A stretch of DNA of 64,000 nt from Kangiellaceae bacterium (GCA_013373015.1 JABXIQ010000001.1:2198-66197), one strand, 5' to 3'; shown: positions 38,190-57,883, counted from the stretch's first letter. Notes: generated by a model not told the origin, from the letters alone. Program-made: numbers and translations.

Positions 38190-38725
38190 AGTTTAAGGTA
38201 ATCTCTAAAATTTGGAGCGGCTTTATCTTTATCAGATAAGATAAAGTCGATATCAGTTGGCCAGTCAATATTTAAATCAGGATCGCTCCACAAAATAGAG
38301 CCCTCATCTGCTGGATCATAAAAATCTGTGCACTTATATTCAAAATCGGCCACATCAGATAAAACTACAAATCCGTGCGCAAACCCGGGAGGAACCCAAA
38401 ACTGTTTTTTATTGACGCCCGACAGTACAACTGATTCCCACATCCCTAGAGTAGGAGAGTCTTTTCTTAAATCGACAGCCACATCCAGAACCTCTCCTCT
38501 TACAACTCTGACTAATTTCCCTTGAGGTTTTTTATTTTGAAAATGTAACCCCCTCAAAACACCTTTGCTTGAACGAGAGTGATTATCTTGAACGAAATCG
38601 AAATCAATTCCGGATTTTACGTATCTATCTTTTTGATAGGTTTCTAAAAAAAAACCTCTGTCATCACCAAAAACAGCAGGTTCAATTATTAAACACTCTT
38701 TAAGCTTAGTTTCAATTATCTTCAT
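38186..38725 (-). CDS. rfbC: dTDP-4-dehydrorhamnose 3,5-epimerase
   Basis: 179 aa with the cupin core [16 protein letters not shown] and PPGFAHGF. Confidence 0.95.
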
Positions 38726-39603
38726 ATTTGATTTACAATCCTTTTCAAATATTGACCATAACCTGTCTTAATTAATTCATTTGCTCGTGCTTCAAGTTGT
38801 ACACTTGAAATCCATCCATTATTAAAAGCAATTTCTTCTAAGCAGGCAATCTTTAATCCTTGTCTATGCTCAACTGTTTGAACAAAGTGTCCTGCTTCTA
38901 ATAAAGAATCATGTGTTCCTGTATCTAACCAAGCAAAACCTCGGCCAAGCAAATTGACGTTAAGCTCACCCAGTTTTAAATAGGCTTTATTCACATCAGT
39001 AATTTCGAGCTCCCCTCGTGCGGAAGGTTTTATTTTTTTAGCAATATCAACTACTTTGTTATCATAAAAATACAGGCCTGTTACGGCATAGTTTGATTTC
39101 GGTTCAGCTGGTTTTTCTTCTAAACTTAGAACTGTACCTTCTTCATTAAACTCAACTACTCCAAAACGCTCAGGGTCGTTCACTCGATATCCAAAAACGG
39201 TCGCTCCTATCCTTAATGATGCCGCTTCTCTAAGTTTGTTGGAAAAATGTTCTCCGTAAAAAACATTATCACCAAGGACTAAAGCAACCGAGCTTTCGCC
39301 AATAAATTCCTCCCCCAATATAAATGCTTGGGCCAATCCATCAGGACTCGGCTGAATCTTATAAGTTAAATTTAATCCAAAATTTTTACCATCCCCCAGC
39401 AACCTTTGATAACCAGAAATGTCATCTGGGGTAGATATGATTAATATTTCTTTTATACCCGAGAGCATTAATACAGACAATGGGTAATATATCATTGGTT
39501 TGTCATAAACTGGCAATAACTGCTTGGATAACCCTTGTGTTAGGGGGTGTAGTCTTGTTCCAGAGCCACCGGCCAATATAATCCCTTTAACAGAACTATT
39601 CAT
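38722..39603 (-). CDS. rfbA: glucose-1-phosphate thymidylyltransferase
   Basis: 293 aa with [16 protein letters not shown] and [12 protein letters not shown]. Confidence 0.95.
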
Positions 39604-40661
39604 TCATCACCTACTCTTTCTAAATTAGAATCACCAGATAAAACTCTTTTCCACCACGTGGTGTTTTCCAAATACCACTTAATAGTTTTTTCTAAGCCCG
39701 TTTCAAAACTTTCTTCAGGAACCCAACCAAGTTCATTTTTTATTTTATTTGCATTAATAGCATATCGAACATCATGTCCAGGTCGATCTTTTACAAACTT
39801 AATTAACTGCTTAAAGTCAGTTACATTAGTTGGTTTTTCAGAAACTTTTTCGTTTAAGAAATCACATATAGCATTTACAACATTAAGATTTGTTTTTTCG
39901 TTATGACCACCAATATTATAGGTCTCACCGGACTTACCTTTTGTAGCAACCAAATACAGTGCTCTTGCATGATCATCAACATAAAGCCAATCACGAATTT
40001 GACTGCCATCACCGTAAATTGGTAAATCCTCTCCTTTCAATGCATTTAAAATCATATGAGGAATCAGTTTTTCGGGAAATTGATAAGGACCGTAATTATT
40101 CGAACAATTAGTTACTATAACGGGTATTCCATAAGTTCTGTTCCAAGCCCTAACCAGATGATCAGAGCTAGCCTTACTTGCAGAGTAAGGAGAGCTTGGG
40201 GCATAAGGGGTCGTTTCAACAAACAAATCATTAGTCCCATGCAAATCTCCATAAACTTCATCAGTAGAAATATGATGAAATAGAAATCCACTTTTCTTTT
40301 TAGATTCTAACCTACACCAATAATTTTTTGCCACATCAAGCAAATTGAACGTACCTACAATATTGGTTTGTATAAAATCAGCAGGGCCGTCGATTGAACG
40401 ATCCACATGACTTTCAGCCGCCAAATGCATAATAATATCTGGCTGAAATTCTTCAAACAGGACTTCTAAAGCAGCCCTGTTACATATATCAATTTTCATT
40501 AATTGATATTGTTCAGAACTAGATATTTCTTCCAAAGAGTCTAAATTAGCTGCATATGTTAATTTATCTACATTGCAAACACGGTGATTGGTATTTGTAA
40601 TAATATATCTAATAACAGCACTACCAATAAATCCGGCACCACCAGTGATTAAAAAATTCAT
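39600..40661 (-). CDS. rfbB: dTDP-glucose 4,6-dehydratase
   Basis: 353 aa with TGGAGFIGS, the ISTDEVYG region and [12 protein letters not shown]. Confidence 0.95.
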
Positions 40662-40675
40662 TAAAATTTCCTATA

Positions 40676-41737
40676 TTAAAAAAGGTTATAATATTGACTT
40701 TTCACAACAGACCACATATAGCGCCTCTCTGCAATTTCTTTCAAGTCATAACCATCAAAATTTTCTATATTTGACTTTAAAATTCCATTTAATGATTCTG
40801 AACAGGCAAAGTACATCCCTTTGTCTTCCATGGTTGCTTTATTATAATTACAGTCAAAAGCAATAATTAACTTATTAAAAAACATCATTTCAACCAAAGA
40901 TGGATTTGTCCCACCGGCTGAATGACCATGAATGTATGCTTTACATTCCGACCTCAATTCAAAAAGTTTATTAAGGTCATATATTGGATCAAGTAGCAGA
41001 ATATTTTCGCTCTCAGAATATTTTAACTTGAGTGCTCTGCCATAACTACTGTTATCCCAGTTCCCAACAAATACAATTTTTTCAGAAGAGTTTTCAAATG
41101 CTTTTAAAATCAAATGCACATTATTCTCAGGTTCTATCCTACATAATGCAAAAAAATAATTATTTTTTTTATTTGGGAGAGGTTTAATAACGCAATGATC
41201 ACCTCCATATGCAATGACAGTGCTATCCAGTGAATACTCTTTATGAACATAATCTGCAATTGCTTGATTGTCTGACACCACAGAAGTTGAGTATTTCACA
41301 GCGATCTTCTCAGAAAATTTTAAAAATTTTCTCGCTATACCACCCCATTTATCACGACGCCACTCTAAACCATCTATATTCGTTATAATTTTCACTTTGG
41401 GAAATAATAGCTTTACTATAGGTAGACATAGTGCGCCAGAAACTCCAAGTACTAAAAGAGTCCTGTAACCTTTGAAAACCGCATGAAAGATAGATAATAA
41501 ATCATAGAGAACACTCTGTGCACCATTAGCAGATAAAGGTATATAATGAAGTGCAGCTCCTTTGTAGTTCCTTATTTTTTTTTTATAGGTTTTTGAAGAG
41601 CAATAAACAACCATGTCTATTGGAGAGTCAGTAATTAAGTTCTCAACTAGAGTTTCAAAACCACCATAACAAGCTGGCACACCAACTGTTCCAATTATCG
41701 CAACTTTTTTATTTTCTTTTTTCATAATATATTGCAC
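40676..41737 (-). CDS. DUF1972-type GT4 glycosyltransferase, GacB/WchF-like rhamnosyltransferase
   Basis: The N-terminus VAIIGTVGVPACYGGFETLVENL, together with NIDGLEWRRDKWGGIARKFLKFSEK, mirrors the GSRGLPAKYGGFETFVEKL ... DGHEWLRAKWS pattern of streptococcal GacB/WchF as I remember it. An alternative ATG lies at 41725. Confidence 0.7.
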   Translation of the reverse strand: MQYIMKKENKKVAIIGTVGVPACYGGFETLVENLITDSPIDMVVYCSSKTYKKKIRNYKGAALHYIPLSANGAQSVLYDLLSIFHAVFKGYRTLLVLGVSGALCLPIVKLLFPKVKIITNIDGLEWRRDKWGGIARKFLKFSEKIAVKYSTSVVSDNQAIADYVHKEYSLDSTVIAYGGDHCVIKPLPNKKNNYFFALCRIEPENNVHLILKAFENSSEKIVFVGNWDNSSYGRALKLKYSESENILLLDPIYDLNKLFELRSECKAYIHGHSAGGTNPSLVEMMFFNKLIIAFDCNYNKATMEDKGMYFACSESLNGILKSNIENFDGYDLKEIAERRYMWSVVKSQYYNLF

Positions 41738-42725
41738 TTGACTCTTTCATTATTTTCTCAACAGTATCCCAGTCCCCATTTTGTATATAAAACCAAGATG
41801 ATGAGATCATACCCAAAGCACCATTTTTAAGTGCATAGTCTGTAAAATTATTCGTAGTATCTTCAGATTCCCATGTAGTACCTATCACGTTAAAACCTTC
41901 AGATTTTAACGTTTTAACTGTAGGGAAATCTATTTGCTCATCCCAATAATGCCAATCACAAACCACCAAATCTCTTGGAAGTTGATCTCTTAGAGGTTTA
42001 CCATAACCAAAAAGGTTTCCATGCAAATGCTTCTTTAACATTTTAGGAAACTCTTTCTGAGAAATAAGCATATCACCCCAAATCCATGTTTTAATGTTTT
42101 TTGACTTTAAATAATCATGCAGCCTTATTACATCTTGAACAAATAAATCAGCAGGAATTATTTTTTGGTCGTCGCCTAACCATTTGTTTTTTGAGTATTT
42201 GCTGTGCCCAGCAGCTTCATCATGTCCTATATGTAAAGCTTTAGGCTCTAAAAGTTCAATAAGCTCATTTATTAGAGGAAATACTATTTCCGAATAAACT
42301 TCGGAATTAGGATTGTATGTTACATCATTATAAAGAAATTGCGGGTGATAATCTTGTAAAAACTTTTCTTGATGAGTGAGTAGTTTTAATTCGGGGATAA
42401 TTTCCAAACCTAGACTCTTTGTATAACTTATCCACTCTTTAAATTCTGACCGGTTTACATATTTTTTACTAAGCTTCCAAGGTGCATTGTTAAGCTCAAC
42501 TCCATCGGTAACTAACGTAACTATATGTGTATAACCATTTTGTTTAGCCATAGAAGATATCTTCATTGCATCCTCTAAAACTATATTCCTAAACACAAAA
42601 TGAAATCCTAATAAGTTGTTATTGCTGTTTTCAACAGTTATATTAGCATCATCCATACATTGAGCCCTCATTATAAATAAAGAAAGTAACGATACAGCAA
42701 AAATTTTTAAAATCTTATCTAACAT
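41709..42725 (-). CDS. secreted GH20-like (dispersin B-like) glycoside hydrolase
   Basis: Trimmed to ATG 42725, 1 nt after the upstream stop; the track start is TTG. It has a signal peptide. The TIM-barrel landmarks are LGLEIIPELKLLTH, the catalytic D-E pair in LHIGHDEAAG, and KTWIWGDMLI. These parallel the dispersin B segments KGIELIPELDSPNH / HIGGDEF / KTRMWNDGLI. Confidence 0.55.
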   Translation of the reverse strand: MLDKILKIFAVSLLSLFIMRAQCMDDANITVENSNNNLLGFHFVFRNIVLEDAMKISSMAKQNGYTHIVTLVTDGVELNNAPWKLSKKYVNRSEFKEWISYTKSLGLEIIPELKLLTHQEKFLQDYHPQFLYNDVTYNPNSEVYSEIVFPLINELIELLEPKALHIGHDEAAGHSKYSKNKWLGDDQKIIPADLFVQDVIRLHDYLKSKNIKTWIWGDMLISQKEFPKMLKKHLHGNLFGYGKPLRDQLPRDLVVCDWHYWDEQIDFPTVKTLKSEGFNVIGTTWESEDTTNNFTDYALKNGALGMISSSWFYIQNGDWDTVEKIMKESSAIYYEKRK

Positions 42726-42726
42726 A

Positions 42727-43719
42727 TTAATACCCAAGTCTTTCCATAGTTTGGTAAAAGGGGATTTTTAGGCCATCATGCAACTCAGGATCAGGTTTGG
42801 CTTTTGGCTTTTTTAGTGTACCTTTTGCATACTCAATACATTTATTGTCATGTGGTAATTCCAAGAAATCTAGAAGTTCAATGAACTCTGTCTCAACATT
42901 ATTGCATAGTTTCTCATAATTTAACCTATGAAAACTATTATCATCAGTATCAATATATTTCATGCCTTCTCTCATAGTAACTATCCATTCTACAGCAGCT
43001 CTATCAACATGATTTTTCCAAGACAACATTTCATCCTGTAAATCTATTAAATCACTATGCTCAGGTATAAGTTGTTCTACTAAATACTTCCACTTACGAT
43101 CATTTACGCCCCACCAGTCATGTGTTTCAGCTTCGTTTTGGATACCGAGTCTTTCGCTCCAATAATCAATCGATAAGCAGGTATCACTACCACTTCTAGT
43201 AAGAAATAAAAATTTAGCATCAGGGAATACTCGCTTTAAAAAACTCACTCTGAAAATCATTTCTGGATATTTGTCGACCGTTCTTTTATTAAAAGTAACT
43301 TTTTCGTAGAAAGAATAAGTTTTATGAGCTTTTTGAATAAGCTTATCAGTTACATTTTCAGCATTTAAGCGATAAGTCGCATCTATATCTGTATAATTTC
43401 CGATAATATCTTCATTCGGTACAATTGAATTCCAAAGTGCTTTCGGTTCATTAAGATATCCAACATCTTTGTGCATAGATAAAATTATACCCAAAATAGT
43501 TGTTCCACTTCTTCCCGTACCCAAAATAAAAACAGGCTTTCTAACTTTGTTAGCGCCAGGCATTATTGTAGACAACTTCAAAAACTTGAACACAAAAAAA
43601 TTAAACCACCGTCCTTTTGTTGTTAACGGTCGACCTTCAAACAAGGCATAGCTCATTAGTCTAGAATATAGTCTTGATGGTCTAGTCTTAATATATTTTT
43701 TGTCGATTTGAGCTAACAT
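42727..43719 (-). CDS. sulfotransferase (RSGTT-loop class)
   Basis: It has the 5'-PSB loop FILGTGRSGTTILG and a 3'-PB-like segment FLFLTRSGSDTCLS. An N-terminal extension of about 60 aa includes a hydrophobic stretch. Confidence 0.8.
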   Translation of the reverse strand: MLAQIDKKYIKTRPSRLYSRLMSYALFEGRPLTTKGRWFNFFVFKFLKLSTIMPGANKVRKPVFILGTGRSGTTILGIILSMHKDVGYLNEPKALWNSIVPNEDIIGNYTDIDATYRLNAENVTDKLIQKAHKTYSFYEKVTFNKRTVDKYPEMIFRVSFLKRVFPDAKFLFLTRSGSDTCLSIDYWSERLGIQNEAETHDWWGVNDRKWKYLVEQLIPEHSDLIDLQDEMLSWKNHVDRAAVEWIVTMREGMKYIDTDDNSFHRLNYEKLCNNVETEFIELLDFLELPHDNKCIEYAKGTLKKPKAKPDPELHDGLKIPFYQTMERLGY

Positions 43720-43722
43720 TAC

Positions 43723-44754
43723 TTATAAAAACCTTTTTTTTATCGAGCTAAAAATATTTTTAGTTCGTCCTAAATTCAACATAACAGAAATACAACCTTT
43801 AAATATAATAACCGGTATATTATAAAGACTTACAAAAAGACTTTGGGCTACCGCGGAAGACTCATAACCAAGTTCACGCATTTCTTTATTACAAACCTTA
43901 TGACAAAGATTAAGCTCATAATGAGTCAACCCTCCATTTTTCCAACTATTGGCAATATTTGAATCTATTCCTTTCTGATTACTGGCATCTTCTTTTGTAG
44001 AAGATCCTACCTTTGGTATTTCCAGCATGTCATCGCTATATATAACTCCTAAAAAATCACAAATATTCTTTATGGCTGGCTCAGGGCTATTTACCAAATC
44101 TTCAAATTTTATTGAAAAAAATCGAGGATGCTTTTCATACTTTTTTGCTTCTAATACATTTGCCCGCCAAAGTTTCGTAATAAATATTGGATGATAATTA
44201 GCCCAAGACCTAAATGCTTCTAATCGAGGGATGGTTTTTGCTCCTAAACGTCTTCTTTTCCATTTATGCTTTTGTGACAACATAACAGCTCTAGGATCTC
44301 TAATCATATTAATGATTTTTGCATTTGGAAGTTTTTCTAATATCTGTCCAGCCGAAAATAAATATCTAGGCGTTTGCTCAAGTGGTATGTGCTTACCTGA
44401 ACCACTCATCTCGCTTAGAAGAACTTTCAAGTATAGTTCCATTGGATTTAATTGACCCAACTCTGAAATCAGCTTCTTACTGATGACATCATAATTTTTT
44501 TTAGGTGCGAAATATCCGTTTCGAATATTATTTATTAGCCTATTAGTCATTGGCAGCAAACTATCAGGACTCCATTCTTTATCTGAGTCTATGTCTTCAA
44601 ATGCAACCAGTTGTTCAAAGAAGTGAAGCTCAGGAAAGGTGGAAATATTTTTCTGCCGCCCTAATATTCGCCCAAGCATAGTTGTGCCACTTCGGCTATT
44701 GCCAACCACAAAAAAAATAATGTTATTTTTTAATAAGTTCATTGTATAAATCAT
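43723..44754 (-). CDS. sulfotransferase (RSGTT-loop class)
   Basis: It has FFVVGNSRSGTTMLGRIL (5'-PSB) and IINMIRDPRAVMLSQ (3'-PB), a pattern like TPST/RaxST/Stf0. An alternative ATG lies at 44742. Confidence 0.85.
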   Translation of the reverse strand: MIYTMNLLKNNIIFFVVGNSRSGTTMLGRILGRQKNISTFPELHFFEQLVAFEDIDSDKEWSPDSLLPMTNRLINNIRNGYFAPKKNYDVISKKLISELGQLNPMELYLKVLLSEMSGSGKHIPLEQTPRYLFSAGQILEKLPNAKIINMIRDPRAVMLSQKHKWKRRRLGAKTIPRLEAFRSWANYHPIFITKLWRANVLEAKKYEKHPRFFSIKFEDLVNSPEPAIKNICDFLGVIYSDDMLEIPKVGSSTKEDASNQKGIDSNIANSWKNGGLTHYELNLCHKVCNKEMRELGYESSAVAQSLFVSLYNIPVIIFKGCISVMLNLGRTKNIFSSIKKRFL

Positions 44755-45931
44755 TTATTTGTAAACAGTGTTGCTCTTTAGTATAGGAACTTATAAAAAG
44801 TTCATGTGCATTCCTGCTCATTTTTTTTACAGTCTCAGTATTGTTAATTGCTTTAAGAAATGAAAACAATTCAGTCTCACTGTACTTATTATAGAGAAAC
44901 CCATTAAAATTATGTTTAACCAACTCCGGAAATGCTCCTGTTCTAGAAGCAATGACTGGTTTACCATGTGCCATAGCCTCAAGACAAGTAAGCCCGAAAG
45001 TTTCGTTCAATAGTGACGGGTTGATAACAACCAAAGAATTCGCGAATATATTTTCTAAATCTTTTCCCGTTTTATATCCATCCCAAATAATATCTTTTTC
45101 AAGACCTAGTTTATTTGCATATTCTTCTATTTTATCTTTATCTTCTCCTTCACCGACAATCCTTAATGGTAACCTAGGTGATTTAAGCTTTGAATATGCT
45201 TTAATAAGTACTTTAACACCCTTTTCTTCGGTAATTCTTCCTACATACAGATAGTAATCACCATTGGTATTATTTTCTATACCGCAAGAATTAGTGAAAT
45301 TTGCAATAGTAGTTATTTTTTTCTTATCCAAGCCTAGTTTTATTAACTTTTCAGTTTGGTAGTTACTTACAGCTATATAATGATTTATAGAGTCATTTGC
45401 ACCAAAAAAGCGAGTCACATATGATTCTGCAGCAGTTAAAATAGAGCGGGCCAAACTACCACGGTTACATTTGTTTATAATTGCTTTCCAATATTTGTTT
45501 CCATGACATTGTTCACAATACTTGCCATTAGCATACAAAGAAGATATCGGACAAACTAGTTTATATTCATGTAAAGTTTGAACTATCGGTGCGCTATAAT
45601 TTTTTAATACCGTTAGTATACTTCCAGTAAGTTGGCCATAATAAATATGTAAATGTATTATATCTGGTTTAAAATCATTTAAAACTTTGACAAGTGTATT
45701 TTTTGCTCTTTTAGAGTACAAGAATGAAAATATATCCTTTAAAGCAGGATTTGATGTATTAATAGTTGGTACCGTTGAATGTATAAGGCTCTTATGAGTA
45801 TTTTGAAGTGACTCAGTGGAAAATGTTTTCACATCATGTCCATGCTCAATAAGTAATGCTGACAAATCTAAAAAGTAGCGATCAGAACCTCCTCTTGGAA
45901 AATGATAATTATTTATCTGCAAAATCTTCAA
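44723..45931 (-). CDS. GT4-family glycosyltransferase
   Basis: 402 aa with the EX7E region ETFGLTCLEAMAHGKPVIASRTGAFPELV. The TTG start overlaps the upstream TGA (TTGA). Confidence 0.85.
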   Translation of the reverse strand: MKILQINNYHFPRGGSDRYFLDLSALLIEHGHDVKTFSTESLQNTHKSLIHSTVPTINTSNPALKDIFSFLYSKRAKNTLVKVLNDFKPDIIHLHIYYGQLTGSILTVLKNYSAPIVQTLHEYKLVCPISSLYANGKYCEQCHGNKYWKAIINKCNRGSLARSILTAAESYVTRFFGANDSINHYIAVSNYQTEKLIKLGLDKKKITTIANFTNSCGIENNTNGDYYLYVGRITEEKGVKVLIKAYSKLKSPRLPLRIVGEGEDKDKIEEYANKLGLEKDIIWDGYKTGKDLENIFANSLVVINPSLLNETFGLTCLEAMAHGKPVIASRTGAFPELVKHNFNGFLYNKYSETELFSFLKAINNTETVKKMSRNAHELFISSYTKEQHCLQINDLYNELIKK

Positions 45932-46686
45932 CGAAACAACTCTCTAATAAGTGAACCAGTAGATAATGAATTAATAGCTTTTTGATTTTCATTAAAATCT
46001 TCAGCAAAAATAAAAGCTTCTATTGCATATTTTTTTGAATAACCCAGAATCAGTGCTTCATTTCTATTATATTTTATCGTATTGATGAGATTGATTGAAT
46101 CTTGAGTTTTATAATGTCTTAAGGCATTTTTTTTATCTAAAAATGTTCCTTTACAGTAAAAGCTTGCATCCATAATATTAAAAGTTATTGAAGTACTTCT
46201 ATAGTATACAACTTTACTTTTTTTGATGTTTTTTGAAGTGCTGTCAGATATATAACTATGATCATTTGTAGTATCATTAGGAGCAAGTGTAAAAACATAA
46301 TCATATAATCCATCTATTGATTTTAGATTACTTCTTAATTTTTCTTTATTTTCTTCTAACCTACCTTCTTCCAGCTCCCAGAAATATAATTTTTTAAAAG
46401 GCAATCCCGTCAGGGCTCTCTTTGACTCGATTACTCTTTTTGCATTTATTTCAGGGTTTGCTGTTCTTGTAACCAAAATGAGCTCAATCTCTAATCTAAG
46501 ACCATTTTCTTTTATAAAGTTATAACAACCTAACACCTCATCATCTGAATGAGGAATTAGTATAACCACTTTTGTACCAGCCAGTATTTTTTTTAAAGGG
46601 ATAATTGGCTTAACAAAGCTCCTACTTTTAATTTGTAGAAACCACAATAATAAATTATCCAATAGTGTTTTTAATATCTTTTTCAT
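45928..46686 (-). CDS. PIG-L/LmbE-family N-acetylglucosaminyl de-N-acetylase
   Basis: 252 aa with the family metal/catalytic motif VVILIPHSDDEVLGC (the PHxDDE pattern). Confidence 0.75.
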   Translation of the reverse strand: MKKILKTLLDNLLLWFLQIKSRSFVKPIIPLKKILAGTKVVILIPHSDDEVLGCYNFIKENGLRLEIELILVTRTANPEINAKRVIESKRALTGLPFKKLYFWELEEGRLEENKEKLRSNLKSIDGLYDYVFTLAPNDTTNDHSYISDSTSKNIKKSKVVYYRSTSITFNIMDASFYCKGTFLDKKNALRHYKTQDSINLINTIKYNRNEALILGYSKKYAIEAFIFAEDFNENQKAINSLSTGSLIRELFR

Positions 46687-48049
46687 TTATCGAATATGAT
46701 TTTATAGAACTGGCAATAGAAACACCTGCCAGGGTCCAGAAAATAAAAGAAAAAGCTCGCAATTCAAGGGCTCTCTCCATGAACAGCGCAAGAGGCAGTA
46801 AAAAACATGCTATTCTAAAGGACTGAACTAACACGTTATTATTTGATGTTTGCTTCAAAAAGAATATTGAGCGTCTGTAAATAAGTATTAAAAACAGTGT
46901 CAGTACCAATAGACCTAAAGGCCCGTAATAGATCAAAGAAGCTATAACAAATACATCTTCAAACGCATTCCATCCTACTAGCTTACCAAATGCACCACCT
47001 TTTGCAGCTAAAATAGATTGAGCATTATTTACATCAGCGCCATAGCCAAGTGGCTTAAAAGAAGTAATTGCCTCTTTCCCTACCTCCATAATAAACCAAC
47101 CTCTAGACCCACTAGAAGTGTTTTGCCAATATTCAATACTTAGCAATTGCATCAGCGACTGTATAGGACTCAAAGACACTTCTTTTGCTTTAACATATTC
47201 AATTGATGATAAATTAGACACCATCATTAAAGCAATAACACCGGAGAGCATGATAGCACCTAACAACATCACTCTAAATCTATGCCCCACAAACCACCAC
47301 CATATAATGGGTATAGATAAAGTCAAAAGGAGTGGACCACGTTTATAAGTGTAAAAAATCCCTATAAGACAAAGAAAATACATTAGATACATAGATATTG
47401 ACTTATTCTTGTAACAGCTACCATATACAAAAAAGATAATAGCGCATATAAACAAAAAGAATGCTAAGGCTGCTGGTCGTCCAAAAGAACCATAACCAAC
47501 ACCAATCTTTGTTTCAAGGTTATTCACTAAACTCTGTATTTCTGTCAGCTCTGCTTTTATCACTGGAGGGGCAAAAAAACGGTCTCTAAACTCCTCGCCT
47601 AAAACATGTTGGAGTAAAGTAAAGCCAACTTGCGTTATAACGATAAGGCTTAATACTTTTATCAATATATCTAATTGTCTAGAAGTGGGCGTCCATTGCA
47701 GTAGAACAATAATGTAATAAAAAGCAATATACCTCATCATTGCTCTTAGGTTAATTAAAGCTTTAAACAAATCTCCATTGTTAATCAAGGTAGAAATAAA
47801 TACCAGCATTAAAAAGAACAGTATACAGAAATCCGCTTTAGTCACCCTAAAATTTGAAATACTCTTATCCAAACATTTTGCAACAACTACCAAGAAAAGA
47901 ATTCCGTAAACCAATAACTCACTAAAGGTCTTTGCCAAGATATAACTTAGCTCACCATTCAAAAGCCTGCCGTATAACATCTCTTCAAAACTGAAGAGCA
48001 ATATAAGACAAATAAGCACAATAAAAATGAAGGGTTGTATTCTAATCAT
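46655..48049 (-). CDS. wzy: O-antigen/capsule repeat-unit polymerase (Wzy-like)
   Basis: 464 aa with at least 10 hydrophobic helices and one larger loop. It is very AT-rich and has an ATGA overlap with the upstream gene. The call rests on topology and context. Confidence 0.65.
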   Translation of the reverse strand: MIRIQPFIFIVLICLILLFSFEEMLYGRLLNGELSYILAKTFSELLVYGILFLVVVAKCLDKSISNFRVTKADFCILFFLMLVFISTLINNGDLFKALINLRAMMRYIAFYYIIVLLQWTPTSRQLDILIKVLSLIVITQVGFTLLQHVLGEEFRDRFFAPPVIKAELTEIQSLVNNLETKIGVGYGSFGRPAALAFFLFICAIIFFVYGSCYKNKSISMYLMYFLCLIGIFYTYKRGPLLLTLSIPIIWWWFVGHRFRVMLLGAIMLSGVIALMMVSNLSSIEYVKAKEVSLSPIQSLMQLLSIEYWQNTSSGSRGWFIMEVGKEAITSFKPLGYGADVNNAQSILAAKGGAFGKLVGWNAFEDVFVIASLIYYGPLGLLVLTLFLILIYRRSIFFLKQTSNNNVLVQSFRIACFLLPLALFMERALELRAFSFIFWTLAGVSIASSIKSYSINEKDIKNTIG

Positions 48050-48933
48050 ATATACTGATTAATACTCTTCCATTTAGATAAGTCGATTTTAAAATTTGAT
48101 TCTAGCAATTCTATATCAGAGCGGAAATACTCTGTCAGTTCTTTTTTTGTAGCTTCAGAAAGGCAAGGTCTGTCAAGATTATCTTTTTTATTATAAACGA
48201 AAAATATTTTTTTTATTCTATCTCTTGATTTTCTATTGAAAAAAGGCTTAAGCATCGGGCCTATGATTTTATTTAATTTAAAAAATAAATGGTTTGATTT
48301 TGCGCCACCAACAGTTCTATTAAACTGTTCATTGGTGTCTATCGGTTCTTTTTTTAAATCGAAAAAAGTTAGTATTTCTTCTAATGTATCATTTGGATTT
48401 TCTTTAAACTCTTCAAATAAAACTATTTTAATTTGATTTTTATTAAAATAGTTTAGTAACTTTTCAAGTTGCTTAAAGTATAGCCCCCTATCAAGATATG
48501 CATTATATCTTTTGTGTATCATCTTGCCTGAACTCAATCTCTCTGGTTCTTTCTTAACTGCCAAATCAAAGCTTTGCTCAATTTCCCTTCCTTTTTGTAG
48601 AGCATATTGATGAGCAGAAAAAGCTCTAGATACCGGCTCCCTTAATAAAACAACTAATCTCATATTAGGATTATGTTCATAAAGCCTTTTGTGCGCTTCT
48701 TCAAAATATACACATCCCACATTTTTAGCTAGAATAAAATCAGCATTTTGATTAGATGTATAGAAGCTGTTATAACACTTATCAAATCCTTGCTTATACA
48801 CATCCTCATTAACGAAATATGGAAGCTCCATAACATCATGAGATGCGACACTAGAATGAGATGACAAGTATCTAAATAACGATGTTGTAGCCGCTTTTTC
48901 GACACCAATGATCATTCCATCAATTGAAATCAT
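48046..48933 (-). CDS. sulfotransferase (Sulfotransfer_1, heparan-sulfate-sulfotransferase-like class)
   Basis: It has MIIGVEKAATTSLFRYLSSH (5'-PSB, GVxKxxT type) and LVVLLREPVSRAFSAHQY (3'-PB). By hand it is collinear with animal 3-OST/NST motifs. Confidence 0.85.
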   Translation of the reverse strand: MISIDGMIIGVEKAATTSLFRYLSSHSSVASHDVMELPYFVNEDVYKQGFDKCYNSFYTSNQNADFILAKNVGCVYFEEAHKRLYEHNPNMRLVVLLREPVSRAFSAHQYALQKGREIEQSFDLAVKKEPERLSSGKMIHKRYNAYLDRGLYFKQLEKLLNYFNKNQIKIVLFEEFKENPNDTLEEILTFFDLKKEPIDTNEQFNRTVGGAKSNHLFFKLNKIIGPMLKPFFNRKSRDRIKKIFFVYNKKDNLDRPCLSEATKKELTEYFRSDIELLESNFKIDLSKWKSINQYI

Positions 48934-49798
48934 AGTAATCCTGACCTATATATTGATAAATTTTAGCAACAGTAGACTCATTTACAATGACAGCTTTGGC
49001 ACTTCGATTAGTGTATATAACCTTTTTAACAAAGTTATTCACAAAGCTTAATAACACTCCAATTATTGGAATACCTTTAAAGGTTATTGCTGCTGCTCTT
49101 CGAAACTTATCATATGTTTTTGCTAAAGCCGGCAGCCTTGACTCAACACTTTTGTTACTGATTTTAAAGTCATAATTTTCGTACATAGACGAAGAAATAT
49201 TTGTGAATTTACATATGTCTGCCATTAATTTTTGAGGGTTATTTCTCAACAAATCAAAATCCACAATAAAAACTCTATCAGAAAAAGCATTTTTTATTTT
49301 ATTAATAAATTGTTTGTTTTTTGCCTGTTCTAATGCGCGCAGATGAATAGGACTATTATCTTTAAAGCCTTTCTTAATACAAAGTTCTATATAATCTTCA
49401 AAGCTAGTGTTTTTTTCTAACAATCCTTTCTGAAGCGAAAATTTATACCAGGAAACAATTCTATCTAAAACACCCCTGATAATTATTATAATTTTTGAAT
49501 TAGGCAACAGTTCTGCAACAGATAAAAATGTCTCACAATACATATAATCAGGGCTAGCCTCCAATCTAATCCTATCATGCTCTGCATCTGAGAACATTTC
49601 TTCATATTCATCTAAGTTTGAACCGTCAAATGTATTTTCCTTCATTGCCGGATAAGATTTATCTAAAAAAAATCTTAACTCTTTCGATTTTGCCGTTGCT
49701 ATATCTTTGTGACATTTTAAGTAGTTATACATTGATGTAGTACCGGATTTTGATTCACCAGCTATGATCAAATACCGTTTATCACTTTGTATATTCAA
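48920..49798 (-). CDS. sulfotransferase (Sulfotransfer_1-like class)
   Basis: It has YLIIAGESKSGTTSMYNYL (5'-PSB) and KIIIIIRGVLDRIVSWYKF (3'-PB). The TTG start follows directly after the wzx TAA. Confidence 0.8.
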   Translation of the reverse strand: MNIQSDKRYLIIAGESKSGTTSMYNYLKCHKDIATAKSKELRFFLDKSYPAMKENTFDGSNLDEYEEMFSDAEHDRIRLEASPDYMYCETFLSVAELLPNSKIIIIIRGVLDRIVSWYKFSLQKGLLEKNTSFEDYIELCIKKGFKDNSPIHLRALEQAKNKQFINKIKNAFSDRVFIVDFDLLRNNPQKLMADICKFTNISSSMYENYDFKISNKSVESRLPALAKTYDKFRRAAAITFKGIPIIGVLLSFVNNFVKKVIYTNRSAKAVIVNESTVAKIYQYIGQDYYDFN

Positions 49799-51076
49799 TT
49801 AACTTTGTAGCCTTTTTAAAAATGGAAGAGTATTGATATGTAATTTTTTACTTACTAAATAAGTTAGTATAGTGTTGGAAAGTATAGCAACTATAGAAAC
49901 ACTTATTGCTGCTCCTATCAGCCCATAATTCGGTATCAAGATAATACAAGCTACACATAGTAGAAGACCACTGAACATTGTTACTTTTTTTGAGACTATC
50001 TCATTGCCCGATGTAATGAGCAGATAGTTCACAGAACCAGTAAGCGCATTTGCAAACTGACCTAGTGCTAATATTATTAGAGCACCCCCTCCTCTTGAAA
50101 AGTCATTTCCAAAAACACTCATTATCAAATCACCAAAAAAAATTATTACAAGCAATACAGGACTTGAGATACCTATAATTATTACTGACATTTTTCTTGC
50201 AATAGATTCAATTTCTTTCAAGTTGTCTTTCGCAAAAAGCGCTGAAAACCTAGGGGCAATCGCATTATTTACCGCAGACAAGGTAAAGCTCACCAACATT
50301 GCAACACGTATAGCTGTCCCAAATATTCCTACATCATCACTTGTAACCCAAAAACCCATTATCAATATTGGGGCATGTTGCAGTATCCCTCTATTTATTA
50401 TGGCAACTACGAGCAAATGCTTACTTCTTTCCCAAAGTTTTCTAAAAGGATAATACGGTACTTTATTCCAGCCACCTATTCTAATGACCCAATTAATGTA
50501 ACAAATTATCAAGACACAATAAGATGCAATGATATAGCTTAAATAAACGCCCTTGCTCTCAAAGTTTTGACTTAAAGGGTATATTAATATTAATCCTAAT
50601 AATGGCAGTAAAGCACCTTGAATCACCATACCAAGAGCATAATTACCACACCCCTTTAAAAATTCAGAATATAAATTAAATATTGTTAAAGGTAAGATTC
50701 CCAAAATCATTATATAGAATGCAGACTCAAAAAAAGCACTCTGAAAAACCTTATTACCAAATAGCGCTAATAATAGATAGATTATAACAATAATGGCCAA
50801 AGAAACTACTGTAGGCACCACAATCCCAGTTTTTGCAACAGCCTTAACTTTCATTTCTTGCTTATTTGCTTTATATTGCGCTGCATTCTTTAATAGAATA
50901 TTATCTAGTCCTAACTTTGAAAAGATACTAATTATAGTAATTGCAGACAATGCAAAGTAATAATGCCCTGAACTTTCCGCACCTAATATTCTCGCTACAA
51001 CTATATTGAATAGGAACATCAAGCCAGCACCAATCACCTTTAGTGTCATGGCAGAAAATGCTGTTTTAATTAGCAT
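49799..51076 (-). CDS. wzx: polysaccharide flippase (Wzx, MOP superfamily)
   Basis: 425 aa with about 12 TM helices. Its position and topology are typical for Wzx. Confidence 0.75.
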   Translation of the reverse strand: MLIKTAFSAMTLKVIGAGLMFLFNIVVARILGAESSGHYYFALSAITIISIFSKLGLDNILLKNAAQYKANKQEMKVKAVAKTGIVVPTVVSLAIIVIIYLLLALFGNKVFQSAFFESAFYIMILGILPLTIFNLYSEFLKGCGNYALGMVIQGALLPLLGLILIYPLSQNFESKGVYLSYIIASYCVLIICYINWVIRIGGWNKVPYYPFRKLWERSKHLLVVAIINRGILQHAPILIMGFWVTSDDVGIFGTAIRVAMLVSFTLSAVNNAIAPRFSALFAKDNLKEIESIARKMSVIIIGISSPVLLVIIFFGDLIMSVFGNDFSRGGGALIILALGQFANALTGSVNYLLITSGNEIVSKKVTMFSGLLLCVACIILIPNYGLIGAAISVSIVAILSNTILTYLVSKKLHINTLPFLKRLQS

Positions 51077-51110: not shown

Positions 51111-52142
51111 TTATTTAAGCTTCAACAATATTGCTTTTATTGAATCCCTTTTTGCTAGCAATAAATTATAGACAATTATTACGAATAGAAATGCAAGCAA
51201 TGAAACGGGTTCCGAAACATTCGTTTTATGTACATAAAAACCAATAAAAGCAAAAAGCAATGCAATGGCCGCTATAAATAATAAAGCATGCTTAGAATTA
51301 AAACCCAAATCCATAAATACATGATGTAAGTGTTCTCGATCTGCGACAAGAGGTGATTGACCTTTTTTTATACGTTTAAACATTACTGTCACCATATCTA
51401 TTAAGGGAACTGCAATAAACCACAAGACATGAGCAGGTTTAAGAACGGCCTCTTCCATTTGGCTGGATACAATTAACAACCATGCTGTCACCATTCCCAG
51501 CATCATACTACCAGCATCACCCATAAAAATTTTATTTTTCTTAGTTAAGAGTCCTAGATTAAACAATAAAAAAACTATAAGCGAAGCGGATAATACACCT
51601 ACTAACATTTGAATATTCGCATCAGGGACAATGAAACTTATAAAAATCAGACTTATAAGAGCTAAAACTCCCGCAAGTCCATCTATTCCATCCGTCATAT
51701 TAAACGCATTAATTCCTGCTAAAATTGCCATAATTGTAACAACACCTGCAGCGGGACCGGTAATCATATTACCAAACCCAAAAACATTTCCTAAATTGTC
51801 GATTTTATAATCTGTTCCAAAAGTTAATATAGCGGCAATTAAAACTTGAGCTACCAAACGCAACTTGGCATTTAAATCATAACGGTCATCAAGCATTCCA
51901 ATAAAAACTAACAAAGATATTGATATAATAATTAAATTTATGTGCTGACTGTCATTTATATACATGCTTATAGAAGTTAATGTCGCTAAATAAATTGCAA
52001 GCCCCCCTATTAGCGGTATATTACCAACATGCTGTTTCCTATTATCAGGCGTATCAACTAATCCCCAATTAACAGCAATTGGTCTTAACAAAAATACAGC
52101 TATAAAACAAACAATCGTAGAAACAATTAAACTATTATGCAC
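51111..52142 (-). CDS. wecA: undecaprenyl-phosphate HexNAc-1-phosphate transferase (WecA/MraY family)
   Basis: GTG start. The motifs are LDDRYDL, NMTDGIDGLAG and FMGDAGSMMLG. 343 aa, polytopic. Confidence 0.85.
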   Translation of the reverse strand: MHNSLIVSTIVCFIAVFLLRPIAVNWGLVDTPDNRKQHVGNIPLIGGLAIYLATLTSISMYINDSQHINLIIISISLLVFIGMLDDRYDLNAKLRLVAQVLIAAILTFGTDYKIDNLGNVFGFGNMITGPAAGVVTIMAILAGINAFNMTDGIDGLAGVLALISLIFISFIVPDANIQMLVGVLSASLIVFLLFNLGLLTKKNKIFMGDAGSMMLGMVTAWLLIVSSQMEEAVLKPAHVLWFIAVPLIDMVTVMFKRIKKGQSPLVADREHLHHVFMDLGFNSKHALLFIAAIALLFAFIGFYVHKTNVSEPVSLLAFLFVIIVYNLLLAKRDSIKAILLKLK

Positions 52143-52156
52143 TTTACAATCCTAAT

Positions 52157-53107
52157 TTATCTGTACTTCCTAACAACTGCCTGTAGCAAAACTATCATTA
52201 ATGATATTAAGCCACCTAAAAGGGTTCCAATTATACAAATAAGAGCTCTAGATGGCTTATCTTTCTCTTCAGGTATTTTAACTTCACTAATTTTTTTAAA
52301 AACAAACTCATCTGATACCTGTGCTAACATTTTTGTCTTATGTTGCTCTTGAACCAACTCACCAAAAACAGTCTTAATTTCTGCAATTGACGTCTGCCCT
52401 ATCTGCGACTCTAAATATTGAATTCTCTTGTTGGCTTCGTCCAATGCTTGATTTTTCATAATCTGATTAATTTCTTGAATCAAAAGATCCGTCCATTGTT
52501 TTGCAATATAAGGTGAGTAATGAGTTATCGAAATATTAACCAGTCCTGTTTCATTGTTTTGATCAACTATTAATCGACTTCTGTACTCTTCAAAAAGTTC
52601 CCAACTTGTAGGTTCAACAGTTTTCCCTTTTGGAGCATCACGAACCCAACTTTTAGTATTTTGATTATATTTTTCATCATCAATGATTAATTGATTCTTT
52701 GACTGGTCCCATCCTCTTGCTGCTAATAAAGGGACAGCCAGATCATACTTTGCGATAAAATTTTCGGCAAAGCCCCAGCTTTTCAATAATTCCATAGCCA
52801 CTATTGAATTCGATGCCCCGCTAGAATTAAAGCCAACCCCAGCCAATGAAGCTAAACCACCTAACTGAGAAGACAGTGCTCCAAAAGAGTCTTTGCCTTC
52901 ACTTTCAATAGGCTTTACAACTGCAGTAGCCTTATATTCATTAGGAAGATATATAGCCAGCCCTACCGACGATATTGCAAATAAGAAAGTGATAACTATT
53001 ATTATCCATTTTCCTTTCCATAGAATGGAAAAAATTTCTCCAACATCAATACCATACTGCTGGTAATGATTGTTTGCATCCGTGATTTCTTGATTTATTT
53101 GTGTCAT
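52157..53107 (-). CDS. wzz: chain-length determinant protein (Wzz/PCP-1 type, no kinase domain)
   Basis: 316 aa. A TM helix near the N-terminus (WIIIVITFLFAISSVGLAIYL) is followed by PNEYKA. The periplasmic region is coiled-coil, and a C-terminal TM helix is followed by RKYR. No Walker A motif or Tyr-rich tail. Confidence 0.8.
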   Translation of the reverse strand: MTQINQEITDANNHYQQYGIDVGEIFSILWKGKWIIIVITFLFAISSVGLAIYLPNEYKATAVVKPIESEGKDSFGALSSQLGGLASLAGVGFNSSGASNSIVAMELLKSWGFAENFIAKYDLAVPLLAARGWDQSKNQLIIDDEKYNQNTKSWVRDAPKGKTVEPTSWELFEEYRSRLIVDQNNETGLVNISITHYSPYIAKQWTDLLIQEINQIMKNQALDEANKRIQYLESQIGQTSIAEIKTVFGELVQEQHKTKMLAQVSDEFVFKKISEVKIPEEKDKPSRALICIIGTLLGGLISLMIVLLQAVVRKYR

Positions 53108-53125: not shown

Positions 53126-54583
53126 CTAAAGCTTAATTTTCCAAGACAATGATATATTGTATTTTTCTTTCTGATAACCAAAGGTATCTATAGTTTTATC
53201 TTTTACTTCTATTTGAGCCCCAATCAAACCGTACTTAGTTGTATTTAGATAGTGAAACTCTATCTGGTTAAACTTAATATTTGTTGTTGAAATACTATGC
53301 TCTTCACCGACACCATCACTATTCATGTTTACATTAGTAAGTTTTAATTTATATTTATCCCCATTCTTATGTGTCGCGATAAGTCCTAAGCCCACACTCT
53401 GTGAATCGTTATCAAATGTCGAGCCTAAGCTTCTTAGTTCTGTACGGTAACCTGTACGATAAATAGCATTGTTATATGTTAAATTTGTTCTATATTCATT
53501 TTCAGTATCGGCATACTCAATATATGAAGAAATATCCAAATCCCCCAACTGAAAGTCTGTAGAGTAACCGAATTGATAAATTTTCCTTGAAGGTAGATAA
53601 CCCGCCTCATCTTCACCTATTAATTGACCGTACAAGGAACCATAATATTTTTTTGTCGGAATTCTCCATTTAAAATCTATACCAGCCAACTGATTACCTG
53701 GCTCATTACTTCTGTCAGCTCCACAACCACCTTCAAGCTCATCACAATTATCTCTGCCAATAAGCAAATTAAAAAAGTTAGACAAGTTTTGAGGTCGTCC
53801 TTCCCCACCCCACTGAGCAGTTCTTCTTAAACCAATTTCCAAAGAATTAAATGGCTTGAAATTAACACTCATTCCTAATAACTTCGCATGTGGAACATGG
53901 CGGTCACTTTCTAATTGACCAATAAAAGCATTAAAGGTCCATGGACCTATCCATGATAACCAAGGAGACTCAAATGCGTCTGAATAATTACGCTGAATAG
54001 ATAATGCAGGAACAGGGCGAGCATTATTAGATAATATTAATGAAGTATCCCATCCAGAGCCATACCAACGCTCTTGAGCCCCAGCTGACAGAATCCAATT
54101 ACCCCATACAGCTGCAATATATGAATGATCCAACCTGTTTTCTTCTCCATCAATAGGATCAAAGGCTCTTGTTGCTTCAATATTCCATGCGAAATTTTTG
54201 CTTACGCCAGTATTTTTTGTTGTGATTTCAGCCTTTTCACGTCTATCGTCACCATAGTGACGAAGGATTTTTCCTTGATTACCAGCTTTTAGAATTAAGA
54301 AACTGTTGCTCTCGTGCTTAGTTTCAAAACGTGCTCGCCTTTTGACACGCATATAAATAGGCATTACCTTATTAGATAATAACTGGTTATCTACCTCTTC
54401 AAGATCACGTACTATCGGAGCCCACATCAAAGGCCAAGTAGTAATTGGCACCTTGATTACACCATGATTTGCTAACGCTTCAATATCCGCACGTAGCCAT
54501 GGATCGCGTGTATCAATCCAAGGCTCTGCTAAAACAGTAAAACTAGTTAACAGCAAGGCTAAAGACACGAAAACTTTTTGCAT
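53126..54583 (-). CDS. wzi: capsule assembly outer-membrane protein Wzi
   Basis: 485 aa with a signal peptide. Long collinear matches to remembered Wzi segments include TWPLMW, SPWLSWIGPW, VPHAKLLG, WGGEGRPQNLSNF, NEPGNQLAGIDFKW and GQLIGEDEAGYLPS. Confidence 0.85.
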   Translation of the reverse strand: MQKVFVSLALLLTSFTVLAEPWIDTRDPWLRADIEALANHGVIKVPITTWPLMWAPIVRDLEEVDNQLLSNKVMPIYMRVKRRARFETKHESNSFLILKAGNQGKILRHYGDDRREKAEITTKNTGVSKNFAWNIEATRAFDPIDGEENRLDHSYIAAVWGNWILSAGAQERWYGSGWDTSLILSNNARPVPALSIQRNYSDAFESPWLSWIGPWTFNAFIGQLESDRHVPHAKLLGMSVNFKPFNSLEIGLRRTAQWGGEGRPQNLSNFFNLLIGRDNCDELEGGCGADRSNEPGNQLAGIDFKWRIPTKKYYGSLYGQLIGEDEAGYLPSRKIYQFGYSTDFQLGDLDISSYIEYADTENEYRTNLTYNNAIYRTGYRTELRSLGSTFDNDSQSVGLGLIATHKNGDKYKLKLTNVNMNSDGVGEEHSISTTNIKFNQIEFHYLNTTKYGLIGAQIEVKDKTIDTFGYQKEKYNISLSWKIKL

Positions 54584-57066: not shown

Positions 57067-57070
57067 TCGA

Positions 57071-57871: not shown

Positions 57872-57883
57872 TACGCTACCGCC
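57872..57883 (-). promoter_or_regulatory. ops (operon polarity suppressor) element, the RfaH recruitment site
   Basis: The minus strand reads GGCGGTAGCGTA. This is 11 of 12 identical to the E. coli ops GGCGGTAGCGTG, and the G12 position is A. It lies 18 nt upstream of the cysQ ATG, with an AGGA Shine-Dalgarno sequence in between. Confidence 0.7.

Follow-up and report, generated by a model that had tools for sequence, protein, structure and literature searches.

What is a gene for a PIG-L/LmbE-family de-N-acetylase doing among the sulfotransferase genes of a polysaccharide operon, and what becomes of the amine that its product would set free? The question is raised by a stretch of 64,000 nucleotides (nt) of a Kangiellaceae bacterium (GCA_013373015.1 JABXIQ010000001.1:2198-66197), hereafter the window, for which an earlier note had proposed a possible split bacterial analogue of animal NDST, the enzyme that turns N-acetylglucosamine (GlcNAc) into glucosamine (GlcN) and then into N-sulfoglucosamine (GlcNS). 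In our analysis the invariant partner of PIG-L is a glycosyltransferase of family GT4, not any of the sulfotransferases. We put the probability at roughly 0.7 that the two genes encode a two-step unit, in which GT4 would add GlcNAc to a lipid-linked repeat unit and PIG-L would deacetylate it in the cytoplasm. The genes around which the argument turns are the following.

45928..46686, minus strand: PIG-L, predicted PIG-L/LmbE-family de-N-acetylase (252 amino acids (aa), ATG start, PF02585)
44723..45931, minus strand: GT4 glycosyltransferase (Glycos_transf_1 8.5e-38, Glyco_transf_4 5e-15)
46655..48049, minus strand: Wzy-like repeat-unit polymerase (Wzy_C 4e-7, slightly under the gathering threshold, GA)
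48920..49798, minus strand: ST-A, Sulfotransfer_1-type sulfotransferase (PF00685 3.7e-15)
48046..48933, minus strand: ST-B, Sulfotransfer_1-type sulfotransferase (PF00685 6.3e-13)
43723..44754, minus strand: ST-C, Sulfotransfer_3-type sulfotransferase (PF13469 1.2e-24; best PDB relatives the CurM/OLS sulfotransferases)
42727..43719, minus strand: ST-D, Sulfotransfer_3-type sulfotransferase (PF13469 6.9e-22), the most conserved gene of the cluster family

The position of PIG-L between GT4 and wzy is as the earlier note described it, its stop overlapping the GT4 start by 4 nt and its start overlapping the Wzy stop by 32 nt, and the 1,360 nt from the PIG-L start to the stop of the nearer Sulfotransfer_1 gene, ST-B, agree with the distance of about 1.4 kb given there. 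The two sulfotransferases counted in that note are both real, but the count was too low, as ST-C and ST-D bring it to four. PIG-L and GT4 are thus bracketed by two sulfotransferase genes on each side, with ST-C and ST-D directly after GT4, while on the upstream side ST-B and wzy sit between ST-A and PIG-L; Wzy orthologues occupy the same position in related loci.

The PIG-L open reading frame (ORF) matches PF02585 with 35.8 bits against a GA of 28.2 (E 1.3e-8, profile positions 2-123 of 129), and all members of its subfamily carry this domain. A word-indexed search of 5.8 billion proteins matched the protein only to itself and a direct PDB sequence search matched nothing; phmmer against 1.84 billion cluster representatives gave 78 matches, 34 of them at E<=1e-10 and with identities of 35-38% for the best. 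Across 31 aligned subfamily members (25-38% identity), 17 residues are invariant: P45, H46, D48, D49, E50, R84, E87, D138, T140, D142, H143, R163, S164, T165, K185, Q195 and E223. The peptide IPHSDDEVLGC, residues 44-54, holds the first motif, P45-H46-S47-D48-D49-E50, which aligns with the PHPDD of diacetylchitobiose deacetylase (Dac) and in which H46, D48, D49 and E50 do not vary; the second, D138-x-T140-x-D142-H143, has an invariant D142-H143 that aligns with the D-H of the Dac HPDH. In the PIG-L/LmbE family (carbohydrate esterase family 14) a first motif of the form (A/P)-H-x-D-D contributes the zinc ligands His and Asp and the general-base Asp, and the last His of H-x-D-H the third zinc ligand; the alignment thus retains all three ligands as well as the base. 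The subfamily profile matches archaeal diacetylchitobiose deacetylase at 1.5e-11, as well as TT1542, BC1534 and BshB.

The AlphaFold (AF2) model built on the subfamily alignment has a mean predicted local distance difference test score (pLDDT) of 91.3 and a predicted template modelling score (pTM) of 0.88. In Foldseek against the PDB it returned 25 matches at E<1e-4, all of the LmbE fold, with template modelling scores (TM) up to 0.67; the best were diacetylchitobiose deacetylases, BC1534, BshB and TT1542, and Dbv21 and Orf2* were matched as well, although identity to any characterised enzyme is just 15-20% in these structural matches. Given 34 representatives with invariant motif residues and a pLDDT of 91.3, the ORF at 45928..46686 is not a chance reading frame. 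From sequence and model together we conclude that its product would be a working LmbE-type de-N-acetylase whose active site is a variant specific to the subfamily, and on the family assignment and the intact metal-binding and general-base residues the earlier note is borne out. PIG-L and the sulfotransferases lack signal peptides, and PIG-L would work in the cytoplasm, in the same place as the sulfotransferases and their donor 3'-phosphoadenosine-5'-phosphosulfate (PAPS). Ahead of the catalytic domain is an N-terminal helix (residues 2-22) that may tether the protein to the membrane.

We recovered the PIG-L subfamily in 15 distinct lineages, and in 15/15 the gene that follows PIG-L directly encodes a GT4 orthologue (36-49% identity). 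Sulfotransferase-rich clusters of one architecture, (Wzx)-ST_1-ST_1-Wzy-PIG-L-GT4-ST_3-ST_3-(GH20)-DUF1972-rml, make up 12 of the 15, including a 30-kb contig (L083) with near-perfect synteny to the window cluster and an activated-sludge Nitrosomonas metagenome-assembled genome (L081); the other three, Thauera mechernichensis (L082), L174/175 and L176/177, are without any sulfotransferase. Pairs of GT4 and LmbE enzymes are known to install GlcN in other pathways, namely PIG-A/PIG-L for glycosylphosphatidylinositol (GPI), MshA/MshB for mycothiol, BshA/BshB for bacillithiol and BtrM/BtrD for butirosin and neomycin.

A sampling independent of PIG-L places these loci in a wider setting. Metagenomes were scanned with the ST-D alignment and the best 80 of 238 relatives (45-58% identity) were kept; the PIG-L profile was positive in 3 of these 80 loci, so that PIG-L belongs to a cassette that is accessory within a far wider family of sulfated rhamnose-polysaccharide clusters. 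The PIG-L-negative sister clusters keep ST-B, Wzy and a GT4 orthologue, while their PIG-L slot is empty or filled by methyltransferases or hexapeptide acetyltransferases. As WecA, DUF1972, ST-D and GH20 are found both with and without PIG-L, the backbone is shared and PIG-L is tied to the residue added by GT4, and the GT4 tree largely follows PIG-L presence. Judging from gene content, GT4 and PIG-L together are an optional decoration cassette in a widespread family of sulfated, rhamnose-containing Wzx/Wzy clusters. As for more distant proteins, the matches listed by a generic PHxDDE-pattern scan of genome contigs were all remote PIG-L proteins (21-48% identity over short segments), and among the matches listed this cluster type did not occur. 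Some distant PIG-L proteins (P0101, P0137, P0138, P0135 and P0139) are fused to GT2 or S-adenosylmethionine (SAM) methyltransferase domains; such fusions are evidence of the Rosetta-stone type that LmbE-fold deacetylases commonly partner directly with glycan-building enzymes.

In the window the cassette belongs to a single minus-strand transcription unit running from ~57.9 kb to ~29.4 kb, with the regulator gene rfaH ahead of it. The order is RfaH, ops, CysQ, Wza-like, Wzi, Wzz, WecA-like, Wzx, ST-A, ST-B, Wzy, PIG-L, GT4, ST-C, ST-D, GH20-like, DUF1972, rmlBADC, pgi, Ugd-like, ATP sulfurylase/APS kinase (APS, adenosine-5'-phosphosulfate), anion transporter and phosphomannomutase. The remaining annotated features are listed below.

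58039..58551, minus strand: RfaH antiterminator (TIGR01955, 177.9 bits against a cutoff of 144.5)
57876..57883, minus strand: ops element GGCGGTAG, an exact match, in the leader between rfaH and cysQ
57071..57853, minus strand: CysQ, 3'-phosphoadenosine-5'-phosphate (PAP) phosphatase, first gene of the operon (TIGR01331, 324 bits against a cutoff of 228.8)
54583..57084, minus strand: Wza-like exporter of 833 aa with four SLBB domains (Poly_export and SLBB)
53126..54583, minus strand: Wzi (Caps_assemb_Wzi 2.4e-80)
52157..53107, minus strand: Wzz-like protein (Pfam Wzz)
51111..52142, minus strand: WecA-like initiating N-acetylhexosamine-1-phosphate (HexNAc-1-P) transferase (TIGR02380, 313.5 bits, slightly under the cutoff of 326)
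49799..51076, minus strand: Wzx-like flippase (Polysacc_synt, MatE)
41709..42737, minus strand: GH20-like protein with a hydrophobic N-terminus (PF00728 1.7e-8; PDB 9fyl 9.4e-19)
40676..41737, minus strand: DUF1972 glycosyltransferase, Cps2T-like beta-1,4-rhamnosyltransferase (PF09314 5e-28; NF046071 1.3e-53, below the curated cutoff)
37284..40661, minus strand: rmlB-rmlA-rmlC-rmlD for dTDP-L-rhamnose synthesis (orthologues at 49-67% identity in related loci; names given from matches and sequence)
34357-35706, minus strand: Ugd-like protein (TIGR03026, 180.8 bits, under the cutoff of 189.8)
32538..34247, minus strand: bifunctional ATP sulfurylase/APS kinase, the PAPS synthase (NF004040, 986 bits against a cutoff of 669)
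30739..32508, minus strand: DASS/CitMHS-type anion transporter with TrkA-C domains (CitMHS, TrkA_C, weak Na_sulph_symp)

All the parts of an RfaH-controlled Wzx/Wzy cluster of the capsule or O-antigen type, with its dedicated sulfation supply, are present behind the ops site. Exact copies of GGCGGTAG number 2 in the window against 0.52 expected, the other (8598-8605, minus strand) presumably marking a second RfaH-dependent operon at 8.6 kb. The Wzz-type co-polymerase of the export module is short, and among the domains detected in the operon there is no Wzc-type tyrosine kinase or ATPase. The G+C content is 0.30-0.35 across 34-54 kb against ~0.40 in the flanks, which is consistent with horizontally exchanged serotype-type genes. 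The Ugd-like protein aligns with nucleotide-sugar dehydrogenases only from about residue 124, its N-terminal NAD-binding region scoring barely (PF03721 4.6e-4) and without an evident GxGxxG, and may be a degenerate or divergent dehydrogenase. The PAPS-binding loop begins within ~20 residues of the N-terminus in ST-A, ST-B and ST-C, and ST-B is probably an O-sulfotransferase of the shared backbone. The GH20-like gene is conserved in many sister clusters (41-47% identity), whether or not they have PIG-L, and its product is probably periplasmic; since GH20 catalysis requires the N-acetyl group of the substrate, a HexNAc is where the enzyme may cut, either trimming the polymer or releasing it, and residues without their acetyl group would be resistant.

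The single initiating transferase and the two other glycosyltransferases (GTs) predict a trisaccharide repeat, and from the gene content the product would be a repeat of HexNAc and L-rhamnose with up to four sulfates. The priming by a WecA-type N-acetylhexosamine transferase assumed in the earlier note agrees with the TIGR02380 match. We infer the donor sugar, the lipid-linked substrate, the order of the steps and the fate of the amine, and propose the following route. WecA would form HexNAc-PP-undecaprenol (PP, diphosphate), to which the DUF1972 enzyme would add L-rhamnose and GT4 an N-acetylhexosamine, most likely GlcNAc. PIG-L would then strip the acetyl group while the trisaccharide is still lipid-linked at the cytoplasmic face, and the four PAPS-dependent sulfotransferases would decorate the unit before it is flipped by Wzx, polymerised by Wzy, and exported and anchored by Wza and Wzi.

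Some related loci are of interest in their own right. Two of them, L085 (2800-13484) and L087 (1771-12444), hold six sulfotransferase genes (Sulfotransfer_1, _2 and _3) around PIG-L-GT4 and only two GTs, six being also the number of free hydroxyls in the predicted trisaccharide; one of their Sulfotransfer_1 genes stops 3 nt ahead of PIG-L. In L172 (6394-8015) the PIG-L cluster is followed by a Formyl_trans_N formyltransferase and a Polysacc_deac_1/DUF3473 protein, a pair that resembles ArnA/ArnD and by that analogy may provide a second route for masking and unmasking amines in the same locus. Secreted sulfatases (Sulfatase and SGSH_C, dockerin and type IX sorting domains) stand beside PIG-L-negative sulfated-polysaccharide clusters in L116 (11053-17277) and L131 (11040-16921), which suggests that the organism remodels or recycles a sulfated polymer of its own making.

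Several points weigh against a GT4 and PIG-L unit that installs and deacetylates GlcNAc. The PIG-L subfamily is small and experimentally uncharacterised in every member. The donor sugar of GT4 is not readable from its sequence, as its NCBIfam matches include BshA, MshA, a lipopolysaccharide (LPS) GlcNAc-transferase and a GlcNAc-PG synthase together with Gal/Glc transferases, at similar scores and all far below the cutoffs. Two loci, L103 and L106, have a GT4 inside the mostly PIG-L-positive clade and yet no PIG-L, from which it follows that the GT4 product would be viable undeacetylated. Finally, where the canonical LmbE motif HxDH has its first His, which in MshB and BshB is catalytic or stabilises the oxyanion, PIG-L has Thr140, and this Thr is invariant across the subfamily. 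Catalysis may thus differ in detail, and the conservation of the substitution suggests a variant mechanism rather than decay. The same TxDH reading, together with the LmbE-fold hydratase GalB among the structural matches and the low identity to characterised enzymes, could be taken to mean that the protein has another activity or a structural role and is not a sugar de-N-acetylase at all; to this we give very little credence, because the metal ligands and general base are invariant, all the other top structural and sequence matches are GlcNAc-conjugate deacetylases, and the context is strictly one of polysaccharide assembly next to GT4. A deacetylase with a different target, namely the reducing-end HexNAc laid down by WecA (HexNAc-PP-undecaprenol or a linkage sugar) instead of the sugar added by GT4, is a more serious proposal. 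The WecA product is the sole sugar whose N-acetyl nature can be deduced from sequence, PIG-L proper deacetylates a lipid-linked GlcNAc, and de-N-acetylation of a linkage GlcNAc is known from streptococcal rhamnopolysaccharides (PMC8807736), though by a CE4 enzyme. We nevertheless consider it unlikely, since the WecA-type and DUF1972 genes are common to clusters with and without PIG-L while PIG-L is joined to GT4 in every lineage and follows the GT4 clade, and since DUF1972 enzymes of the Cps2T/GacB type generally use an acetylated lipid-linked primer.

If GT4 and PIG-L act as such a unit, the amine that they leave may have several fates. It could stay free, as a cationic or zwitterionic site in a polysulfated chain, for which the odds seem to us to fall somewhat short of even. 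It could be sulfated to GlcNS by a Sulfotransfer_1 enzyme, most likely ST-A, so that PIG-L and ST-A would be a two-gene counterpart of NDST; this is the hypothesis of the earlier note, which would add to the core mechanism and not replace it, and which we regard as doubtful. The probability that is left goes to other outcomes for the amine. In favour of N-sulfation is the distribution of ST-A-type genes, defined by an ST-A profile score of at least 180 bits that also exceeds the ST-B score: they occur in 10/10 sulfated-type PIG-L-positive lineages against 6/28 PIG-L-negative ones (naive Fisher p=1.7e-5), and among PIG-L-negative loci that keep the GT4 orthologue in 3/8 (p=0.0065), although physical linkage and the shared ancestry of whole clusters confound this association and the lineages cannot count as independent. 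For ST-B, which served as the control, no such association with PIG-L is seen (p=0.17-0.51). L103 and L106, which have no PIG-L, also have no ST-A, yet keep ST-B, Wzy and GT4; conversely, L083 has a GT4 from the other clade, yet PIG-L and a window-type ST-A are both present. In two neighbour-joining (NJ) trees the window ST-A clusters only with the ST-As of PIG-L-positive loci, but the bootstrap value of this PIG-L-specific clade is just 38% and it is graded as suggestive only. A Sulfotransfer_1 gene directly abuts PIG-L in three lineages, and the six sulfotransferases of L085 and L087 for a predicted trisaccharide also speak for the hypothesis. Against it, relatives of ST-A (28-36% identity) occur in at least six PIG-L-negative lineages, and the ORFs checked in these loci turned out to be flippases, methyltransferases, acetyltransferases and sulfatases, with no deacetylase or aminotransferase among them; taken as a whole, the ST-A group is therefore not N-specific and includes probable O-sulfotransferases. 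Three lineages moreover keep PIG-L without any sulfotransferase.

The sulfotransferase sequences themselves were also compared with characterised relatives. The closest of these to the ST-A profile is the N-sulfotransferase (NST) domain of NDST1 (69.9 bits, where the best 3-OST reaches 46.7), whereas the ST-B profile scores NST and 3-OST5 equally (98.0 and 96.4 bits); against 1nst the profiles reach 2.1e-18 (ST-A) and 5.9e-27 (ST-B), which is homology at the family level only. In a tree that includes the bacterial structure 3rnl, the two animal enzymes NST and 3-OST5 join each other with 99% bootstrap support and fall outside the group of bacterial ST-As, which means that ST-A is no orthologue of NST. 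The same catalytic Glu serves N- and O-sulfotransferases of the family (PMC11625862), and in our alignments the region around it does not separate the two. A call between N- and O-sulfotransferase by sequence was accordingly rejected, the NST-favouring scores of ST-A being undone by the tree and by the undiscriminating Glu region: sequence gives family membership and not the specificity for the acceptor atom. Literature searches gave no structure-proven N-sulfated bacterial polysaccharide, hence the low prior that we place on N-sulfation, and the claim that it is essentially undocumented for bacterial capsules agrees with this. Nitrous-acid and dye assays do report N-linked sulfate in extracellular polymeric substances (EPS) of Pontiella and of granular sludge (PMC7356697, PMC10483923), and their authors describe the pathways and enzymes as unknown. 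A literature search for PIG-L enzymes in clusters that make sulfated polysaccharides, and another for the family to which the core deacetylase WabN of enterobacteria belongs, returned nothing usable. Taken with substantial caveats, the patterns match what a functional coupling of ST-A and PIG-L would produce and are suggestive. Of the sequence of events in the earlier note, exposure of the amine is well supported, while the sulfamate step, N- rather than O-sulfation, is possible and attractive but a minority hypothesis. Only tentatively, then, can ST-A be put forward as a bacterial glucosamine N-sulfotransferase acting on the freed amine of the lipid-linked repeat. In that case the polymer made by this operon, and by at least a dozen relatives from metagenomes, would be the first N-sulfated polysaccharide of bacteria to be defined genetically.

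Re-derivatisation of the amine by something other than sulfate is the further possibility, and the three sulfotransferase-free lineages bear directly on it. They form a subtype of their own:

L082 7778-15631, L174 687-10381 and L176 599-7246: sulfotransferase-free subtype, in the order GNAT-like protein, Wzy, PIG-L, GT4, pyruvyltransferase, unknown protein of 405-416 aa, DUF1972

A cryptic sulfotransferase was considered for the Thauera-type locus and rejected, the protein in the slot being GNAT-like. In all three lineages this ST_1 slot is occupied by a protein of 304-306 aa with weak Acetyltransf_9 matches, whose tandem-GNAT model (moderate pLDDT, 69.6) matches Eis aminoglycoside N-acetyltransferases and N-myristoyltransferases (NMTs), and whose profile is positive in these lineages only, among ~95 loci and the window. 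An N-acyltransferase-like match with this restricted distribution suggests that the amine freed by PIG-L is re-derivatised, at least in the subtype, and so lends some weight to amine modification in the sulfated type, where the sulfotransferases of the window are the only candidate amine-modifying enzymes. The argument is one by analogy, however, since the entire decoration set is swapped between the subtypes (GNAT-like protein and pyruvyltransferase against sulfotransferases) and not a single gene. The genes of the subtype predict a pyruvylated polymer with an exchanged N-acyl group. Whether an enzyme that cannot be recognised in the window operon might likewise re-acylate or otherwise N-substitute the amine, giving an unusual N-acyl polymer, is a related matter. 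LmbE enzymes follow an established deacetylate-reacylate logic in the mycothiol and teicoplanin/A40926 pathways, the structural matches include Dbv21 and Orf2*, and the subtype has its dedicated GNAT-like protein; but neither the window nor any locus of the sulfated type has a match to the GNAT profile, and the operon ORFs include no GNAT, hexapeptide acyltransferase, ATP-grasp or formyltransferase, for which reasons we hold this quite improbable.

Sulfated bacterial polysaccharides are poorly understood, and to our knowledge there is no bacterial pathway to an N-sulfated hexosamine. The locus offers a compact, testable gene set (WecA, the DUF1972 GT, GT4, PIG-L, four sulfotransferases and its own PAPS supply), and the question can be directly addressed through a natural series of loci that have or lack PIG-L, have or lack ST-A, or bear the GNAT/pyruvyl decoration. 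Were N-sulfation true, the operon would hold a soluble bacterial deacetylase/N-sulfotransferase pair of interest for animal-free heparin, where expression of NDST in bacteria is a bottleneck (PMC13353177, PMC11069525), and might be where the N-linked sulfate measured chemically in EPS from Pontiella and granular sludge comes from. Were the amine to stay free, it would still be a new use of a GT4/LmbE pair, in a zwitterionic polysulfated capsule.

Among known sulfated polymers, the synechan xss cluster of Synechocystis (PMC8205485) and the capsular polysaccharides (CPS) of Vibrio sp. KMM 8419 (PMC11641403) and Cobetia marina (PMC11766843) likewise combine assembly genes, PAPS genes and several sulfotransferases, and the Vibrio polymer also has sulfated rhamnose; they differ in that their known structures carry O-sulfate only. 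The Vibrio paper (PMC11641403) has 0 occurrences of a deacetylase, and neither the PIG-L/GT4 cassette nor the ST-D cluster family was met in the literature searched.

The parallel with NDST drawn in the earlier note holds in part. If N-sulfation occurs, the sequence GlcNAc to GlcN to GlcNS with PAPS would be the same, and ST-A and ST-B are homologous to the NST/3-OST family (profile E 2e-18 to 6e-27). The deacetylase domain of NDST1, however, has no relation to the LmbE fold of the window enzyme, being an Agd3/CE4-like (beta/alpha)7 barrel whose active site is a His-His-Asp triad (PMC10864358). In NDST, moreover, both activities reside on a single polypeptide that works on the completed heparosan chain in the Golgi lumen, whereas the window has separate genes whose products would act in the cytoplasm, probably on a lipid-linked oligosaccharide of a rhamnose polymer. 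No GT of the heparosan-synthase type is found in the operon, where the GTs are WecA-like, DUF1972 rhamnosyltransferase-like and GT4, together with rmlBADC. Any parallel with NDST is thus one of analogy, "analogue" being the most that can be kept of the proposal, and N-sulfation, if it occurs, would be convergent.

Dac (PDB 3we7, 4xm0, 8bgn) is the closest solved relative of PIG-L by profile and by structure (Foldseek 2.5e-8) and shares the PHxDD...DH zinc site; it differs in being a catabolic, soluble enzyme with free chitobiose as substrate and a full HPDH, at 15-18% identity. Orf2* and Dbv21 of teicoplanin and A40926 show the same logic of an LmbE-fold deacetylase that frees a GlcN amine for a second enzyme to re-derivatise, as in the GNAT subtype and by analogy in the ST-A step, but they act on glycopeptide antibiotics and the second reaction is acylation, not sulfation. 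There is a close likeness, too, with the GT4 and LmbE pairs PIG-A/PIG-L, MshA/MshB, BshA/BshB and BtrM/BtrD. Shared with these are a retaining GT4 and an LmbE-fold metal-dependent de-N-acetylase encoded by adjacent, translationally coupled genes, the cytoplasmic setting and, in the PIG-L case, a lipid-linked acceptor. The window subfamily differs in having Thr for the first His of HxDH and only 16-20% identity to BshB and TT1542, and the window pair in its location inside a Wzx/Wzy operon, where it would act on an undecaprenyl-PP-trisaccharide. The pairing of GT4 and LmbE enzymes is itself already known; its occurrence as a cassette within sulfated Wzx/Wzy clusters is new.

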